Source: a virus
Reading direction: 5' to 3' (one strand)
IMG/VR virus record: IMGVR_UViG_3300021387_000133
Location: 1-41,909 of that record
Length of the DNA: 41,909 nucleotides
The translations under genes and the position numbers were made by a program. Positions within the stretch are counted from its first letter, which is position 1; each line of letters begins with the position of its first letter. A model generated the notes under the pieces. It worked only from the letters and a program-made list of their open reading frames with translations, had not been told where the DNA came from and did no database searches. Of this stretch, positions 2,769 to 25,132 are shown piece after piece.

Positions 2769-3032
2769 TCAACCCCCAATCAGTTCATACACATCACACA
2801 GTGCCATCTGTGTGTTTGTCACTTCCGTTGCCAGTTCTTCATTCTGCTGCTGAAGCAGTTTGATGTATTCATCCTTGTCATACTCAATCAGGGTGAAACT
2901 GAACCCTTCAAAGGTTTCTTCACCGTGGTCTTCTGTGACCGGCTGAATGTTCTGTGCAACGAAAACCTTTGTTGCTGTGATTTCCACATCAAGCGGTTTC
3001 ACGGTGCTTTGCTGCACTCCATAATTTTTCAT
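2769..3032 (-). CDS. Hypothetical tail-fibre-associated protein (XkdW-like by general pattern)
   Basis: 87 aa and acidic, with a C-terminal helical segment (QQQNEELATEVTNTQMALCDVYELI). Its ATG overlaps the RT stop (ATGA at 3029-3032). The function call is tentative. Confidence 0.45.
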   Translation of the reverse strand: MKNYGVQQSTVKPLDVEITATKVFVAQNIQPVTEDHGEETFEGFSFTLIEYDKDEYIKLLQQQNEELATEVTNTQMALCDVYELIGG

Positions 3033-4156
3033 GCTGCCTTTGCCCCTTTCTTGTTTGGTTCAATGTTGGTTTTATAATATTCATCTGCAAACGGTATCAG
3101 CGGTGTTATATACTTCTTTGTCAGTCTGAAGCTGTTGCAGTGTTTCAACCATCCTTGATATGAATGAATTGAACACCATTCTGAATAGTTCATCATCTTG
3201 CCACTTTCACACTTCTGCCTGATTGCAGTCATTTTCTGTTTCATGGTCATACAGGTGGACTTTCTCAGCAGGACATAATTCATGAATACCCTGTAACCAA
3301 GATAATCAACACCACGTACATAAGACGGGAATATTTGCCAATTTCCTTTGACCTGCAACCGCATATTTTCTTTGAAGTAAATCTTGATTTCTTCAATCAG
3401 CAGGTGCAGTTCTTCTTTTGTTTCCGCAAAAATAACAATGTCATCCATGTATCTGAAGTAATGCTTTACGTGCTTGACTTCCTTCATCCAGTGGTCAAAG
3501 TCACTGAAGTAGTAATTTCCAGAATACTGTGACAAGTAATTGCCTATAGGAATGCCGGTGTTCGGGTCAATGTCTTCTTCAAGCAGGTATATTTCAACCA
3601 AGTCTTCATCATCTGCCGTGTTGATGCTGTCAATAATTTCATCCAACAACCACAACAGATCATGGTCTTTGAACAGCCGTCTGAATTTCTGTTTCATGAT
3701 ATCGTGGTTGATGCTTTGGTAATAATGCCGTGCATCAATCTTCAGGCAGTATTGACACCCTTTCACATCATGCTGCATTGCATCAGTCAGGCGGTTCAGC
3801 CCCTTATGAATGCCCCTGTCAGGTATTGCACTGTATGTATCTGCTATCAGATGTTTGACAATGTACGGTTCAATCACCTGCAAGATTGCCCATTGTGCAA
3901 CCCGGTCAGGGAAATACGGCAGCTTGTAAATCTTTCGGTTCTTGTCTCTTTCCTTCTTGAAAAATACCTCATAATCTGATGTGTGATACAATCGGTTCTT
4001 CAGAAGGTATTGAAGATAATACAGGTAATAGTCAGGGCATTTGTCTATTTCCTTGACTTCCTTGTACCACCCTTTACCCTTCTTTGCGTTCTTATGCGCT
4101 AACCTCAAATTTTCAATATCACAAATTTTATCGAACAGGTTTCCTACACGCTTCAT
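3029..4156 (-). CDS. DGR-type reverse transcriptase
   Basis: 375 aa. The N-terminus (MKRVGNLFDKICDIENLRLAHKNAKKGK) is typical of DGR RTs. It has the IGNYLSQY (IGxxxSQ) motif and the YMDDIVIF catalytic YxDD box. A TR/VR pair with adenine-only differences lies immediately upstream. Confidence 0.93.
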   Translation of the reverse strand: MKRVGNLFDKICDIENLRLAHKNAKKGKGWYKEVKEIDKCPDYYLYYLQYLLKNRLYHTSDYEVFFKKERDKNRKIYKLPYFPDRVAQWAILQVIEPYIVKHLIADTYSAIPDRGIHKGLNRLTDAMQHDVKGCQYCLKIDARHYYQSINHDIMKQKFRRLFKDHDLLWLLDEIIDSINTADDEDLVEIYLLEEDIDPNTGIPIGNYLSQYSGNYYFSDFDHWMKEVKHVKHYFRYMDDIVIFAETKEELHLLIEEIKIYFKENMRLQVKGNWQIFPSYVRGVDYLGYRVFMNYVLLRKSTCMTMKQKMTAIRQKCESGKMMNYSEWCSIHSYQGWLKHCNSFRLTKKYITPLIPFADEYYKTNIEPNKKGAKAA

Positions 4157-4195
4157 TCTCCATCTTTCTGTATGCGTGAAAACCGGGTCTTCAAC

Positions 4196-4223
4196 CTTAT
4201 ACGAATGAGTACAAGTCTACCAA
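4196..4223 (-). promoter_or_regulatory. Putative sigma70-type promoter for the RT gene
   Basis: Minus strand reads TTGGTA (4223-4218), a 16-nt spacer, then TATAAG (4201-4196). It is flanked by the 14-bp direct repeats ATCTTTCTGTATGC at 4162-4175 and 4231-4244. Confidence 0.35.
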
Positions 4224-4319
4224 CACGGCAATCTTTCTGTATGCCTGAACAGTCACCTTTTGGATGCTGCACAGGTCTTTTCTGTTTTGCCAAGGGGCAA
4301 GGTTAAACAACTACCACAT

Positions 4320-4365
4320 TTTTATATAAAAACAGCAGGGACTTTCAATGTCATCCCTGCTGTTT
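4320..4365 (-). terminator. Rho-independent terminator immediately 3' of the DGR template repeat
   Basis: Perfect 12-bp stem (4330-4341 / 4354-4365) with a 12-nt loop. On the minus strand it is followed by TTTTTATAT. Confidence 0.7.
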
Positions 4366-4370
4366 CACGC

Positions 4371-4491
4371 ATTTACTAAGTGACTGCTGATATTCCGATT
4401 ACGATTACCAACACTATTATTCAGATTCCAATAGAAACTGCCTGCATTAGTGCCATTATTCCAATTACTGCCTAATTGAGCAATTCTTTTT
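4371..4491 (-). repeat. DGR template repeat (TR), non-coding
   Basis: 121 bp, collinear with 4621-4741 at a constant offset of 250 bp. It differs only where the TR minus strand has A. It is A-rich, with 11 AAT codons when read in the VR frame. Confidence 0.92.
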
Positions 4492-4551
4492 GTGGTTTCG
4501 TGCAGAATTAGTGATAATTTCAGCGGTTGTTCAACCTATATCTAAACGTGG

Positions 4552-6681
4552 TCAGGCAGCAAGCTGTTCTTCCCACGCATTGATATTTGTCTGATAGTCT
4601 TCTGCGTTCCGTGTCGGTACATACACCAAGCGACCGCCGATATTCCGATCACGATCACCAACACCATTAAACAGATGCCAACAGAAACCGCCCGCACTAG
4701 CGCCATGACTCCAACTACCGCCCAATCGAGCAATACGGTATCCGTTCAGGTCTGCGGTCACATAGTGGTAGTCACCAACCGGCAGTGAACTGTTTCCGGT
4801 GCATTCAGATGCCATGAACAACCAATCACATTTTGTACTGTATCCGATTGCGGAAATATAGCCGTTTGCGTTGGTCACGGTGAAACCGGCAGGTTCATAG
4901 TTTCCGTTGTTCTTACTTTCTGCAAAACTGAAGTCATTGCAGATATACGGCTGACCACCTTCCATGCTGCCATTACCCCACATATTGACACCATAGACAA
5001 ATTTCCAGATGTTACCAAAGAAGTTTTCTTTGCCACGCCACCGCATAGCGGTTTTGTTCGCTGCCGTTTCTGTGTAGGTTGTGCCGTTTCTTTCATTGAT
5101 GGTGCTTTCGGCACGGCCTGTGCCGTTTCCAATGCTTGCGGTACTGCCGGTCAAGCTGCTGTTGTTTGTGGTGTTCGGACTGTCAGAAATGCCGGTGACA
5201 CCTGCACTGATAGCATCCTGAAAGTTCATAGTTCCAAGTTCAATCATCATCAGCAACTGTTCAGCAGATACCAACTTGATCAGATCACCGTGGAAACCTG
5301 AACCCCGGTTCTGTGCCATCGTTTCAACGTTCGGCCTTGTCAGTCCCTGTGTCACACCTGATGCCGGTTTCACCCCGGCAATAGAACTGAACTTGTCCTG
5401 TGCCACCGCCATGACCTGCGCATCATCCGTGATGTATGCATTTTCAGAAACATCATACAGACAACCTTCATACGCACCGGTCAGGAAATAGTCAATTTCT
5501 TCACCGTTCGCATCATAAAAGGCCGGGTGCAGTCTGAACCCGGTACGGGCTTTCTGACTGACATAATAGTTTGCTTTTCTCAGATGGTAACCAATGCCGG
5601 TGTCAATCGGATCATAGTTGACAGGTGCAACCAGATAATAGAATTTAGGCTGATACACCATGACCTGACCCATGCTGCCATCTTCAGCATAATCATTGTC
5701 ACCGTACCAAGCAACAATAGTTCCGTCATCTGCCACGTTGCACAGTCTTCTGCCCCCATACATTGTGTACTGATCAAAGTCAGCACCGGCAGTCTTTCCA
5801 ACCGCACCTGCAAGACGGGTGTATGTCTTGTTCTCATAGTCAACAGACAGACCAAGTACATCTGTTGTGATGCCAAGGTACGCTTCAATATTTGCCACGC
5901 CTGCAAGAATTTCCTGTGCATTGAAGTTTTCAGACCTCAGTTCTTCAAGGTTTGAACTTGCTGAACTGTTTTCAGCCTGCAAAGACTGATACACGGCCTG
6001 TGCAGTTCCTGTTGAAGTTTCAAGGTTTGTTTTTGCGGTGTTAGCAGTCTGAACATCCGCTGCAAGGTCTGTCCGCATCTGATCAGCGGTATCAATGACA
6101 CCCTGCAACTGTGTCTTTGTACTGTTTGCAGTTGAAACAGCACTGTCAAGATTAGACTTGGACGTTCCTGCCGTACTGACAGAATTGTCAAGCTGTGTCT
6201 TTGCCGTTCCTGCTGCCGTGATGGATGCATCAAGGTTGGTCTTTGCGGTTTCAGCATTGGTCTTTGCCGTGTTCGCTGCTGCCGTTGCCGTTTCAAGGTT
6301 ACTTTTCGCCGTGTTCGCTGTACTTGTGGCAGAAGTCAGGTTTGTACGTGCGGTGTTTGCCGTGGTTGTAGCATTTTGAAGGTTGGTTTTCGCTGTGTTG
6401 GCAGTGTTGGTTGCACTGACCAGATTTGACTTTGCCGTATTACCGGCAGATGTGGCAGCTTCAAGGTCAGACGTGACCTGTTCCGCTGCTGCAACCTTAC
6501 CGTCAAACGCTTCAACCTGATCATCAACAGCGTCTTTGGCAGCGATCACATCAGCCTTTAACTGTGCATAGCTTTCATTATCATCATTGACCTTCACCAA
6601 GGCGTTGATGATAGATGAACGGACTTCTTCACCGTACACTGCATTTGCTATCTGATCAGTATAAGGTGTGATATTAGCCAT
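4552..6681 (-). CDS. Tail fibre / receptor-binding protein, DGR target with C-terminal C-type-lectin (FGE-like) fold region
   Basis: 709 aa. The N-terminus carries 14-aa coiled-coil-like repeats. The C-terminal part contains NFFGNIWKFVYG, comparable to the GNVWEW motif of CLec/FGE folds, and the VR-encoded segment GGSWSHGASAGGFCWHLFNGVGDRDRNIGGRLVY. It sits after the baseplate/tail-tip genes. Confidence 0.88.
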   Translation of the reverse strand: MANITPYTDQIANAVYGEEVRSSIINALVKVNDDNESYAQLKADVIAAKDAVDDQVEAFDGKVAAAEQVTSDLEAATSAGNTAKSNLVSATNTANTAKTNLQNATTTANTARTNLTSATSTANTAKSNLETATAAANTAKTNAETAKTNLDASITAAGTAKTQLDNSVSTAGTSKSNLDSAVSTANSTKTQLQGVIDTADQMRTDLAADVQTANTAKTNLETSTGTAQAVYQSLQAENSSASSNLEELRSENFNAQEILAGVANIEAYLGITTDVLGLSVDYENKTYTRLAGAVGKTAGADFDQYTMYGGRRLCNVADDGTIVAWYGDNDYAEDGSMGQVMVYQPKFYYLVAPVNYDPIDTGIGYHLRKANYYVSQKARTGFRLHPAFYDANGEEIDYFLTGAYEGCLYDVSENAYITDDAQVMAVAQDKFSSIAGVKPASGVTQGLTRPNVETMAQNRGSGFHGDLIKLVSAEQLLMMIELGTMNFQDAISAGVTGISDSPNTTNNSSLTGSTASIGNGTGRAESTINERNGTTYTETAANKTAMRWRGKENFFGNIWKFVYGVNMWGNGSMEGGQPYICNDFSFAESKNNGNYEPAGFTVTNANGYISAIGYSTKCDWLFMASECTGNSSLPVGDYHYVTADLNGYRIARLGGSWSHGASAGGFCWHLFNGVGDRDRNIGGRLVYVPTRNAEDYQTNINAWEEQLAA
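4621..4741 (-). repeat. DGR variable repeat (VR) within the tail-fibre gene
   Basis: Matches the TR except for ~27 substitutions by hand count, all at TR adenines. It ends 23 codons before the fibre stop codon. Confidence 0.92.
6016..6459 (-). repeat. In-frame ~42-bp tandem repeats (14-aa units, ...TANTAKTNLxxA...) in the fibre N-terminal shaft
   Basis: About 10 successive 14-aa units are visible in the translation (aa ~75-222). Examples are ATNTANTAKTNLQN, ATTTANTARTNLTS and ATSTANTAKSNLET. Confidence 0.8.
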
Positions 6682-6914: not shown

Positions 6915-9900
6915 TTAACCTCTCATGACGTTGTTGTTTGGTATTACAATAGGTACATCAGGCAGCGGTGTTTCTTTGGTTTCCTTTCCGCTTTCCAACT
7001 TTGCACAGAATGTTTTCTTGTCAAGCAGGGTGAACGGATCAGACCAAACCGGCACATCATAACCCATGTGCAGGTGTTCGCACAGTTCCTGAACTGCCTT
7101 GATGCAGTAATAAACCAATTTGTCAGCTTTCAACTGCAAATGCCCATCAGCGCACTGTTCAACAAGTTCAGGGGCTTTTTCCTGTATCTGCTGCGCAATA
7201 ATTCCAATAGTTTCATGTTCCCCGGATGTGACCCAATCAAATGATTTCAAGTCAATACCGTTGATGATATCAAGACCATTCACGGCAGTTTCTTCAATGT
7301 TCTTCTTCATACGTGCGTCAGAATCATTGGTATACCCCCAACCGTGAAGGTTCAAAGTAGAATAAAAGTCAATGCTTTTGTTGTTCCAAATCTTGAATTC
7401 TGAACCGGTGAACTGACAACAGGACGTTGATTTGTCACCGAGTGAAACACCACCTTCAGCCCATAATTTAATGCTGTTGCCGGTGTAGGAATAAAACCCT
7501 GCCCCGTCATTTATCCTGAAATATCCACCAAAATACACATAGTCACCAAAGTGAAAACCCTTCTGTGAAATCGTGTCATCACTGTAGTAGGCGAACATTG
7601 TTGTATATGTGCTTGCTGTTGATGAAGTCTTTCGTGCCCAAGCCATATAGCCGGTTGTGTATTCCAGATCAAAAACAAGACCTCTATATGTAGGTTTGTT
7701 TTGGAAACTGTTCGTTCCGATCTTTCCCAAATACACACCGTCACGGTAAAAATGTGAACCGTTGCTATTGTACTGTGCAACCATCTTGTGTGATGCTTCA
7801 ACGGCAGTGTCAAAAATCTTCAGCGCACCGCTTGAAAATTCAACATACTTTGATATGTTGTTCCATGCGATCTGAACAGAACTTGCAGACTGCTGAACTT
7901 TAGTTGAGAAATCAGCAGTGTTCAACTTCTTTTTTACTTCTGATGTAATTGCATCAGTTGTCACCTTGATCTGTGCTGACGTTGAATAACTTTTCAGTTT
8001 TCCGTCAACATACTGTTCAGCAGTTTCCTTTGCAGACAGCAACACAGCGTCACGGGTGTTCTGAATGGATGTTTCAACTTCTGACTTGGTATAATACTTT
8101 TTCAGTTCACCATCTGTGTATGTTTCAGCATCTGACCGTGCGTTTGCTTCAGCATCTGCAATTTCCCGTTCAACTGTTTCCCGGTACGTGACTGACAACT
8201 TTTCAGCAGAAACTGAACCGCCAACCAACCGTTCACCAACAATCTGACCGTCCATTGTGATTGCTGTTGCATATGTCCCGTTGTACCCGGTTGAAGAATA
8301 CCCCAAACCGTTCAGGTTCCAACGCCACACTTTCTGTGCCGTTTCAACGTCATCCGTGTCCATGATCAACTGTTCATTGGCAGTTGTCACCACATGACCG
8401 TGTGTTGCTGCCGTGATCAGTGCTGTTGCTTGGTCAATGGCCTGCTTCACGATCTGTGACGGTACAGGTATGTGGTCAGATATCTTCACCACATCAGATG
8501 ACTGTGAACTTGATTTACTTGTCAGTGTACTTTTCTGTGTCCCGTTCAGGATGATTTCATTTTCTGACGGTTTTGTCAGATTGATTTTCATGCCCGTCAG
8601 GGGGAAATTCCTGTCAATGCCGTGCAGGGGTGACCGTACATGAATACTGTCACCAATCTTGAACATTTCCATTTCAGCATCAGTCAGATGAAGGTCAACC
8701 GCCTTTGCTTCAATGGTCATGTTGTCAAACTGATAATCAGTCAGATACTTCTTTCCCTTGGATAACAGCATTTCAGGCGTGGTCACATCATCCCACTTGA
8801 CTACCTTCAGGATCAGACCATACTTTGCCACCGCATCAGCGTTTACAATGTAGTCAAGGCCGTTGTTCACACTTTTGATGTTCACACGTTCATCAAGTGC
8901 TGCAATCGTCCTTTCTTCCAATGACGCACCAAGGGGTATGATTGCCGTGCAGATATCCCGTAAATTGAACCCCCGGCTGATATCAAGCAGGTTTTCACCA
9001 AAGTCAATCTGTTGTGTGTTCACGTTGTCACTTGGTTCAGCCAAATAATCAATGTAGTGAACACCGTTTTCATTTCTGACCCGGATGTAACCGCCCAAAT
9101 TTTCAATCAGGTCTTCTTTGATTGCTGTCAGGGTGTTTTCATAGTTGGTATATCTGTACAGGCTGTCATTGTTATCAACAACCGTGACCATACCAACCTT
9201 GAACATTTTTCTGCTTTGATAGTTTGCAGGTACGTTGACCGTATACTTGAACAAAAGATTGCTTTTGTTTGCATATGGGTTGTGTTCTGATGTTATTGCA
9301 GTAGGATCAGACACGGTTGTTGCTGTGTAGTTTGGCAGTGTTGCAGCAGTGCCGTACATGGGTGAACCTGCGTCAGTCAGTCTTATGCTGTCAACCGAAA
9401 AACCATAAAAGCTGTTTACACTGTTATCAGTATGCCAATATACATATATTTCCGGTGACGGCAGCACGTATGTCTGACCTGCAACGGTGTTTGCCCTGAC
9501 TTTGTTCAGAACAACGTATGTCACACCGTCCTGCACATAGTACAGTGACAGGTTATCATACCTTTCACTTTCACCGGCACATTCTTCATTAAATTTGACA
9601 GCAACCTTGACTTCCTTCATCTGTTCGTTATGAATGGAAATCAAGGTTTCAAGATAACCCCTGACAGTCATGTCATGGTATTCTGCCGGTCTTTGAATAC
9701 TGTCATTCAAGTATGCAAGCTGTCCTTCACAATAGCACGTTCGCCGGTTGTAAAAGTCAGTGTTGTCTTCTACAATACGACCATTGAACAGTTCAACATC
9801 ATCTTGAAATACTTGAACTGTTGACAACATTCTAACCGGCACACCATATTGTGGGTGTGCCGGTGGTATCTTAAATTCAAAAGAACCTGATGCATTCAGT

Positions 9901-24697: not shown

Positions 24698-25132
24698 TCA
24701 GGTTTTGTTCAGAACGTGATGGTATTTTTTTTCAAACGCCTGCAACGCATAACCGTGTAATTCAATGACATACTGCCGGTTATAGTTCATTTCAACGGCA
24801 ATTTTTTCCCATGACATAAACTGAAGATATCTTTTGTGCAGGATCAGTCTGAACCTGCTGTCCTTCAATCCGCTGATTTGTTCGCTGACTTTCAGCTTGA
24901 AATCAATCAGTTCATCTATTTTTCGGGTGATTTCACGTTCTTTTTCATCAATTTTTGAAAACAATGTTTCAAACCGTGCTTCACCGTTTACGCTTGTCTG
25001 TACCCTGTCACCTTCAACTGAAGGACTGCCGATGCAGTACATCATTTCTGTCAACTGTGCTTTGTCAGCAAGCATATTATTGATATCAGCATCAAAGTCC
25101 TTCACCTGCTGAAGATAATCTTTTGCGGTCAA
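24698..25132 (-). CDS. Putative late-gene transcriptional regulator (DUF1492 / sigma-70 region-4-like HTH)
   Basis: 144 aa. The C-terminal segment LILHKRYLQFMSWEKIAVEMNYNRQYVIELHGYALQAF resembles a sigma region-4 HTH. It lies directly upstream of terS, as do the RinA/ArpU-type regulators. Confidence 0.6.
   Translation of the reverse strand: MTAKDYLQQVKDFDADINNMLADKAQLTEMMYCIGSPSVEGDRVQTSVNGEARFETLFSKIDEKEREITRKIDELIDFKLKVSEQISGLKDSRFRLILHKRYLQFMSWEKIAVEMNYNRQYVIELHGYALQAFEKKYHHVLNKT

Follow-up and report, generated by a model that had tools for sequence, protein, structure and literature searches.

The 41,909-nt DNA of IMG/VR virus record IMGVR_UViG_3300021387_000133 (positions 1 to 41,909, here called the window) raises the question of what lies in the 395 nt between its tail-fibre gene and the reverse transcriptase (RT) of a diversity-generating retroelement (DGR), at positions 4157-4551. 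In a preliminary description of this DNA, the interval was taken as part of an unusual DGR without the accessory protein Avd, in which an intrinsic terminator ends the template RNA and a separate promoter, bracketed by direct repeats, serves the RT. Every sequence feature listed there is indeed present on the minus strand (as are all window features given below), while the interpretation put on them is supported in part, the larger share of it failing. The interval as a whole, however, is probably a noncoding, conserved folded RNA of an Avd-less DGR rather than a gap holding a terminator and a promoter, to judge from comparison with its relatives.

The window holds both a template repeat (TR) and variable repeat (VR) pair differing at TR adenines and, next to it, an RT of the DGR clade. 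The VR (4620-4734) lies near the 3' end of the 709-aa tail-fibre open reading frame (ORF) that is the DGR target (4552-6681; PHROG tail protein, 2.5e-83), and the TR (4370-4484) starts about 64 nt past the fibre stop, closely following it as had been described. The two 115-nt repeats are 80% identical in register, with 23 mismatches, every one of them at a TR adenine (23 of the 38 are affected), and the DGR is active-looking. The 375-aa RT (3029-4156; Pfam RVT_1, 3.5e-16; PHROG RT, 3.4e-112) carries the motif IGNYLSQY; an SQ within RT motif 4 (IGxxxSQ) is a hallmark of the DGR RT clade. Its closest relatives are phage DGR RTs, BPP-1 bRT (29% identity) among them; the RTs of crAss-like phages are 38-43% identical to it and that of an Oscillospiraceae metagenome-assembled genome (MAG) 99%. 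No ORF of 60 aa or more was found within 4157-4551, as had been noted from the start; the longest has 46 aa.

What the interval does contain is a set of paired segments, including two long-range complementarities that the preliminary description had not listed. Twelve bases between the fibre stop and the TR (U1, AGGTTGAACAAC, 4526-4537) are complementary over 12 bp to a spacer strand (S1, GTTGTTTAACCT, 4300-4311), forming what is called here the stop duplex. The 3' end of the TR and the bases just beyond it (ATGCGTGAAA, 4363-4372) are perfectly complementary over 10 bp to TTTCACGCAT at 4172-4181, which is followed by the conserved ACAGAAAG and just precedes the conserved CAUACAAAG and the RT start; this helix is called P1. 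In the spacer between S1 and the 3' strand of P1 lie a small hairpin, TTGCC-CCTT-GGCAA followed by an A-rich run (4277-4300), and the P4/P5 domain (4182-4229), in which P4 (GCCG-T-GT with AC-C-CGGT) leads through an internal loop, UGGUAG / UUGAAG, to the apical stem P5 (CTTGTAC/GTATAAG). A further hairpin seen in minimum free energy (MFE) folds, P3 (4244-4275), is inserted into this core; it has other sequences in close relatives and is absent from many relatives.

Comparison was made with 111 related loci that have a TR/VR pair and whose RTs are 42-99% identical to that of the window (loci are designated by L numbers where they must be told apart). Covariation was counted in a structure-blind MAFFT alignment of 32 relatives, with 500 shuffles and with partners slid by 1-3 columns as controls. 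Overall, 87.7% of cells are paired, versus 69.7% in the shuffles (0 of 500 as high) and 24-41% in the slid controls, and the covariation score is 0.49 versus 0.18 in the shuffles. The stop duplex is 94.8% paired, with compensatory changes at 7 of its 10 pairs and 57 distinct helix sequences across relatives; P4 is 98.4% paired, with such changes at all 6 pairs, and P1 77.6%, with changes at 7 of 9. RNAalifold recovers the stop duplex, the small hairpin and P4, and local permutation tests give z = 16.5, 14.2 and 7.6, the value of 7.6 being that of an anchored test of P1. The small hairpin has the generic form UGCC-NCUU-GGCA, then AAAAC, with the compensatory variants UGCC/GGCA, UACC/GGUA, UGGC/GCCA and CGCC/GGCG; its 100% pairing in the permutation test arises partly by construction, the loci having been picked by a regular expression that requires it. 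MFE folds of the window reproduce all of the helices (z = -2.8 and -3.6). The covariation of the stop duplex, P1 and P4 across 4157-4551 speaks for a structured RNA and against a terminator/promoter gap.

Two further pairings are more tentative. U2, the ACCACA just 5' of the TR (4491-4496), pairs in the MFE fold with the UGUGGU of a strand S2 (4313-4318; S2, TGTGGT in the DNA, and S1 together span 4300-4318), and matching pairs were seen by eye in the relatives L052, L008, L054 and L020. U3 is a conserved GCUGA(U) at 4520-4524, directly 3' of the stop-duplex strand and complementary to the AUCAGC of the TR (UCAGC, 4393-4397), which falls in the TR codons AAU-AUC-AGC; 76.5% of its cells are paired and its covariation is weak, with 7 compensatory cells against 1.6 expected. 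In some relatives the U3 motif and the TR are seen to change together (ACCGAU/AUCGGU in L073, GCCGAU/AUCGGC in L093, AUUGAU/AUCAGU in L087).

The core of this RNA, from the small hairpin through P4/P5 to the tail GCAnACAa, matches the Rfam family RT-17 (RF03020), which Weinberg et al., 2017 (PMC5737381) described as an RT-associated motif of unknown role; in that work only RT-10 was linked to the BPP-1 DGR, and its authors speculated that further DGRs are served by the remaining RT motifs. The small hairpin, P4/P5 with its UGGUAG/CGAA loop, and the tail all agree with the RT-17 consensus, and all RT-17 helices are present in the window. A scan of the window at the Rfam gathering threshold gives no match; with an E-value threshold the RT-17 covariance model scores 31.3 bits (E = 4e-4), below the gathering threshold of 40.4, because P3 and a duplicated tail interrupt the motif in this copy. 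The gathering score is exceeded by 7 of the 19 relatives scanned (41-68 bits). The RT-17 consensus draws the conserved ends as unpaired, whereas here both of them pair with sequences flanking the TR.

When the 15-base small-hairpin motif was used alone as a probe, at least 119 viral contigs were found, and the motif is followed at 79-293 nt by the start of a DGR-type RT in 85 of 118. In 25 of the 118 contigs with the motif TGCCNCTTGGCAAAAC (L211-L328), a downstream RT was not detected, and decayed DGR cassettes seem to be common. Locus L144 (~3049-3290) keeps the TR and the spacer, with the RT cut to about 30 codons fused into the 87-aa gene described below. In L035 and L036 (RT region from 4001) the RT frame is broken into a 132-aa N-terminal ORF and then a 247-aa ORF in another frame, with TR, spacer and VR intact. 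Locus L029 has a group II intron at 7564-7778 (Rfam group-II-D1D4-6, 87.7 bits), about 2.4 kb downstream of its DGR RT.

The arrangement of these elements can be read against that of BPP-1 (RF03022, Phage_DGR/RT-10), using the RNA element definitions of Handa et al. (bioRxiv 10.1101/2023.10.23.563531). Shared with BPP-1 are a duplex that the spacer forms with sequence upstream of the TR, after which come a short tetraloop hairpin and adenosines (the cPRT Stop); an RT-binding stem with a sarcin-ricin-like loop, to which P4/P5 would correspond; and a duplex of the TR 3' end with the spacer. Loop 3 of RT-17 and loop 8 of RT-10 are both assigned to the sarcin-ricin type by JAR3D (PMC13085918). The window differs from BPP-1 in having neither Avd nor an obligatory Avd-binding stem-loop, and in that the partner of the TR 3' end is at the 3' end of the spacer, whereas in BPP-1 it lies 2 nt before the stop strand, so that the topology here is a crossing one (a pseudoknot); the BPP-1 model RF03022 does not match the window. 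A BPP-1-like primer strand beside the stop strand (UGUGG) was considered and rejected, as its sole possible TR partner lies upstream of adenine positions that differ in the VR, and the only partner of the TR 3' end that covaries with it is the spacer 3' end.

By analogy with BPP-1, we infer that the conserved RNA elements flanking the TR build the substrate for reverse transcription. The 12 bases upstream of the TR, paired with the spacer just before the NCUU hairpin and its A-run, would be the counterpart of the cPRT Stop; P4/P5, with its UGGUAG/UUGAAG loop, would be that of the RT-binding stem-loop and would form the RT-17 motif together with the small hairpin; and P1, which joins the TR 3' end to the last spacer bases before the RT, would be the template:primer duplex, with cDNA synthesis starting from its 5' edge and its 3' strand as the candidate primer strand. 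If P1 is the primer duplex, this RNA would have a crossing topology, which BPP-1 does not share.

The sequences at the 3' ends of the two repeats are consistent with this placing of the primer. The preliminary description had found no block resembling an initiation of mutagenic homing (IMH) site, yet the last 16 nt of the TR (AGTCACTTAGTAAATG, 4370-4385) and of the VR (GGTCGCTTGGTGTATG), which are not identical, show their differences at fixed positions shared by nearly all relatives. Among 58 relatives, TR-to-VR changes of A>G are found at -9 in 50, at -5 in 47 and at -2 in 43, while position -1 (A>T in 38, C>T in 8) differs in 47 of the 58 by overall count. Position 0, the first base of P1, is an unchanged A in 52 of 58, and the TR/VR differences at A end exactly at the 5' edge of the P1 5' strand. 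The differences at -5 and -2 are both synonymous, so selection on the protein does not account for these two. The block looks like an IMH/IMH* pair, and TR/VR homology ending at the edge of P1 fits its proposed use as the template:primer duplex.

Sequences very like the TR are also found outside complete cassettes. In a nucleotide search of a phage collection the TR alone was matched, in Clostridium phages CS266P1-4, where a TR-like sequence 92-96% identical to that of the window is followed by the spacer hairpin motif, with no RT nearby (L001, OP172777.1, ~5001-5110; L002, OP172775.1, ~5001-5054); in CS266P1 the first half of the TR has been replaced. These look like DGR remnants.

The position of the helices bears directly on the suggestion that the TR RNA is uncoupled from the RT, since U1:S1 and P1 join sequences on the two sides of the hairpin that follows the TR and are kept by covariation. 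It follows that a working template needs spacer RNA from beyond the hairpin, and that a transcript ending there would lack everything that, by analogy with BPP-1, is needed for priming and processivity. One way to keep a stop at the hairpin would be to split the DGR RNA, with a fibre-TR RNA ending there, a second RNA that starts just past it and carries the spacer and the RT, and reassembly in trans through U1:S1, U2:S2 and P1. All three of these helices do bridge the hairpin, most hairpin-bearing relatives have an A/T-rich, ATATAAA-like stretch after it, and in the window the hairpin loop and T-run are overlapped by TTGAAA-16-TATAAA (4321-4348), though relatives do not conserve the -35-like hexamer, those that lack a hairpin have the A/T-rich linker as well, no promoter was found at the level of the scan, and folding in cis accounts for the same helices more simply. 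Such a split is most unlikely. As an observation on the sequence itself, TTGAAA (in the hairpin loop), 16 nt and TATAAA (in and after the T-run) make a better promoter-like match than the one proposed for the RT; the hairpin loop of L052 also has TTGAAA, and this -35 is not conserved in other relatives.

The hairpin itself was correctly described. Its stem is an inverted repeat, perfect over 12 bp (4354-4365 / 4330-4341; -21 kcal/mol), around a loop of 12 nt, and the T-run TTTTTAT follows at 4326-4332 (the whole element spanning 4326-4365), right after the TR; MFE folding also predicts it, and a simple terminator scan, which admits loops of 3-8 nt only, omits it. A GC-rich perfect stem of 6-16 bp (-6 to -25 kcal/mol) is found at the same site in 22 of 55 representative relatives, in unrelated sequences that usually have an A-tract on the 5' side and a T-run on the 3' side. 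The other 33 of the 55 have no hairpin, only a linker of 10-45 nt. Presence of the hairpin is scattered over the range of RT identity, with absence even in the close L004 group (73% RT identity), and relatives without a DGR have no such hairpin after the fibre gene. It is an optional element, then, which goes with the DGR cassette and is kept up as a structure: the terminator-like stem and T-run recur in relatives, as expected from the earlier reading, but as something that most of the representative relatives do without. The hairpin after the TR is the only part of the whole interval that looks like an added regulatory extra.

Because the RT and essential lysis genes lie downstream of it with no detectable promoter of their own and would have to be reached by read-through, the hairpin is read as a leaky terminator or attenuator, most likely a leaky intrinsic terminator. 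It would be inserted, as an optional element, into the linker that joins P1 and the stop strand, at the place of the Avd-binding stem-loop of BPP-1 (spacer positions Sp 3-33), and would limit read-through from the fibre gene into the spacer, the RT and the lysis genes. The same placement gives rise to the main alternative, for which the preliminary description had left room with a structural or regulatory element of the DGR RNA: as a stem-loop with a structural part in the ribonucleoprotein, successor to the Avd-binding one, the hairpin would bind the RT or some host factor, or lend the RNA stability. It sits directly after the TR as Sp 3-33 does, a stem-loop is found there in 207 of 278 Avd-containing DGRs (Handa et al., bioRxiv 10.1101/2023.10.23.563531), and the stem is kept by covariation-like turnover. 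Absence from 60% of representative relatives, the close L004 group included, means that it is not essential, however; the stems are perfect and without the flipped-out bases described for Avd-binding stems; their A-tract and T-tract flanks are like those of bidirectional terminators; and Avd was not found in the phage. We consider a structural role unlikely, and leaky termination remains the preferred reading.

The hairpin also has a likeness to the TR, its 5' arm (CAGCAGGGA) opening with the CAGCAG that the TR has as well (AUCAGCAGUC, 4388-4396) and its 3' arm ending with CUGCUG. Pairing of the 3' arm with the TR would thus be a second option, and the hairpins of several relatives also start with CAGC or CAGG; this may reflect an alternative pairing or hint at where the hairpin came from.

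The promoter fares less well than the hairpin. The hexamers TTGGTA (4218-4223) and TATAAG (4196-4201), 16 nt apart, are indeed where they had been reported, and together match the consensus at 9 of 12 positions, the T at position 6 of the second hexamer being missing. The promoter scan does not call this pair, and in shuffled sequence about 8 sites per 5 kb qualify for the scan with at least 9/12, so the match is no better than chance. TTGGTA belongs to the conserved UGGUAG sarcin-ricin-like loop of RT-17, while TATAAG makes up the 3' side of P5, the variable stem. The supposed -10 is part of a stem whose sequence varies freely among relatives, and conservation of the -35 extends to relatives in which no hairpin comes before it. 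No sigma-70-type promoter for the RT, conserved as such in relatives, was found, nor did the promoter scan find a consensus promoter on the minus strand from the TR to the end of the endolysin gene. The role in RT expression is rejected, and the promoter-like match is coincidental, a chance-level resemblance within a loop and a stem of the RNA.

Taken whole, the preliminary description called for an efficient terminator, a TR produced solely at the 3' end of the fibre mRNA, an RT expressed from TTGGTA-16-TATAAG, and a supply of TR uncoupled from it. In favour of that model, the hairpin and T-run are real and recur in relatives, the TR does lie within the 3' untranslated region of the fibre gene, and co-transcription of TR and RT is not required in some DGRs (Wu et al., PMC5758913). 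Yet both hexamers are inside RNA elements (the conserved loop and a strand of the variable stem), the 9/12 match without T6 goes uncalled at a level where shuffles give about 8 qualifying sites per 5 kb, 33 of 55 relatives lack the hairpin, and a transcript starting near 4190 would miss S1, the small hairpin and the 5' strand of P4, all of which covary with their partners. The model in this form is very unlikely, and a single folded RNA spanning the hairpin is preferred.

The direct repeats that had been seen to bracket the promoter are real, as an exact 14-mer within 19 nt that has one mismatch (4162-4180 / 4231-4249). A 14-nt repeat was reached in 0 of 2000 shuffles of the region, so this one is not due to chance. 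Rather than a bracketing design, it is a duplication of the P1 3' strand private to this lineage: the proximal copy (4162-4180) holds the P1 3' strand plus CAUACAGAAAG and overlaps the purine-rich region before the RT start, while the distal copy (TTCAGGCATACAGAAAGAT, 4231-4249), which sits after P3, duplicates that strand together with the CAUACAGAAAG tail. The repeat occurs only in the window and its 99% twin L051 (a near-identical MAG); with nothing similar in about 104 other relatives, it is rejected as a family feature. It is to the distal copy that Rfam aligns the RT-17 3' tail. That the distal copy might act as an alternative or decoy primer strand for the TR 3' end, tuning mutagenesis, is suggested by this alignment, by a repeat length far beyond chance and by complementarity of the copy to ATGCGTGAA at 9 of 10 positions, but the repeat is confined to one lineage, pairing there would leave P4/P5 outside the closed domain, and a recent neutral duplication explains it equally well; such a function is quite improbable.

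The absence of Avd, for which the preliminary description had proposed a search of all small ORFs, is borne out by Pfam profiles within the window: neither bAvd nor IVP gives a match among all 112 window ORFs of 70-230 aa, nor, at E<=1, in the 20 window genes of Avd size, while as a positive control the Avd of BPP-1 scores 7e-36. The BPP-1 type of cassette with avd in it (Architecture B) is not what the window has. The layout is a known one, though it had been called non-canonical: Architecture A, with TR-RT and no accessory gene, makes up 75 of the 372 DGRs of Wu et al., 2018 (PMC5758913), who state that Lineage 3 lacks avd and that their profile searches of its genomes revealed none elsewhere. 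The same core order, TR-RT without an accessory gene (Architecture A1 / Lineage 3), is seen in the window, and the target-TR-RT layout without avd is shared by crAssphage LMMB and about 100 of the 111 relatives, in which the VR-to-TR gap is only 25-185 nt. The window DGR is a further case of this Avd-less target-TR-RT kind, with an RT-17 spacer RNA.

One gene was considered as a possible replacement for avd. Downstream of the RT, whose stop codon it overlaps (ATGA), is an acidic 87-aa ORF (2769-3032; PHROG 18126, function unknown), for which tblastn gave no match in the phage collection. It follows the RT in nearly all relatives, and of 79 homologues found independently, 75 have the RT just upstream. 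The idea of a substitute accessory protein was rejected, since L134 and L187 carry it directly after the fibre with neither TR nor RT; the fibres of these DGR-less relatives are 62-66% identical to that of the window, and in L144 a remnant of the RT is left. The position of the 87-aa gene directly after the fibre in DGR-less relatives shows it to be an ordinary phage gene in front of which the DGR cassette sits. In two distant relatives, L038 (1569-1934) and L041 (733-1086), with RTs only 42-44% identical to that of the window, an ORF of 117-121 aa lies between target and TR, in the place of avd; it has no match to the Avd Pfam profiles (PHROG 19665, function unknown) and may be a different accessory protein. 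On the minus strand the genes run in the order tail genes, fibre, the 395-nt gap, RT, the 87-aa ORF, XkdX-like small ORFs, holin and CHAP endolysin, and the window looks like a complete temperate siphovirus-like phage of 41.9 kb.

Among the published systems closest in kind is crAssphage LMMB, a Lineage 3 DGR with the order TG-VR-TR-RT (target gene, TG; PMC7290462). It has target (VR), TR and RT on one strand with no avd or other accessory gene, and an RT 38.5% identical to that of the window, and its spacer shares the stop duplex, the small hairpin, P1 and the motifs GUGUUGGUAG and CGAAGGCUC; the window is tentatively placed in Lineage 3 by this RT similarity and the shared spacer RNA, not by phylogeny. 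LMMB is a crAss-like phage of Bacteroides, however, whereas the window is a siphovirus with a host in the Bacillota (Oscillospiraceae), and in LMMB the terminator-like hairpin precedes the DGR RNA, right after the fibre stop, while that of the window stands between TR and spacer. The LMMB hairpin (L131, ~2105-2195) is long and near-perfect, has a T-run, and comes before both the stop-duplex strand and the TR. The closest RT from an isolated phage (49.5% identity) is that of Psychrobacillus phage Perkons (MT325768), in which the layout is likewise target-TR-RT and the spacer contains the motifs UGGC-ACUA-GCCA-AAAC, GUGUUAGUAGG and CUCGAAAACUCGG; it differs in being a 137-kb phage of a soil Bacillota host, unannotated as carrying a DGR and without a terminator-like hairpin after the TR.

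Several points weigh against reading the interval as a single folded DGR RNA with a leaky terminator in it. P1 crosses the stop duplex in a pseudoknot topology, so the two helices could be alternatives rather than simultaneous, and pairing at the outer positions of P1 holds in no more than about half of the relatives. Selection or IMH rules, instead of an initiation site, could account for the fixed differences, mostly A>G, between the 3' ends of TR and VR, and the RT-17 score of the window stays under the Rfam gathering threshold. Intrinsic terminators tend to have loops shorter than 12 nt, and the T-runs of several relatives are weak. The promoter scan is weak evidence, as late promoters here may not be sigma-70-like: a gene at 24698-25132, with a match to DUF1492 and a weak one to sigma-70 region 4, resembles the ArpU-type late transcription regulators of phages. 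The absence of Avd, finally, was judged with profile hidden Markov models on the phage window, the host genome lying outside the search.

With these points in mind we advance, tentatively, a more specific proposal for Avd-less DGRs. In them RT-17, instead of standing on its own as a motif, may form the centre of a pseudoknotted DGR RNA, with its two conserved ends clamping the template, the 5' end pairing upstream of the TR and the tail GCAUACA with the TR 3' end; the primer strand would have shifted from mid-spacer to the RT start codon, and the freed Avd-binding site would have been re-used in some lineages for a terminator gating the DGR RNA and the RT. What this adds to the earlier accounts is the long-range pairings that would make RT-17 a template clamp, and the optional terminator-like hairpin in the former Avd-binding site.

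About a quarter of DGRs do without Avd; mechanistic and structural work to date has all been done on the Avd-dependent BPP-1, and the published survey of DGR RNA elements covers Avd-containing DGRs only. This locus and its approximately 200 relatives supply a testable RNA model of Avd-independent priming, which specifies the bases of the stop duplex, the RT-binding loop and the start of the cDNA and gives the orphan Rfam motif RT-17 a role. For annotation, the fitting label for this interval is DGR RNA rather than a terminator/promoter gap. For gut phages, an optional hairpin of this terminator-like kind, set between template and spacer, suggests a simple throttle on self-mutagenesis.

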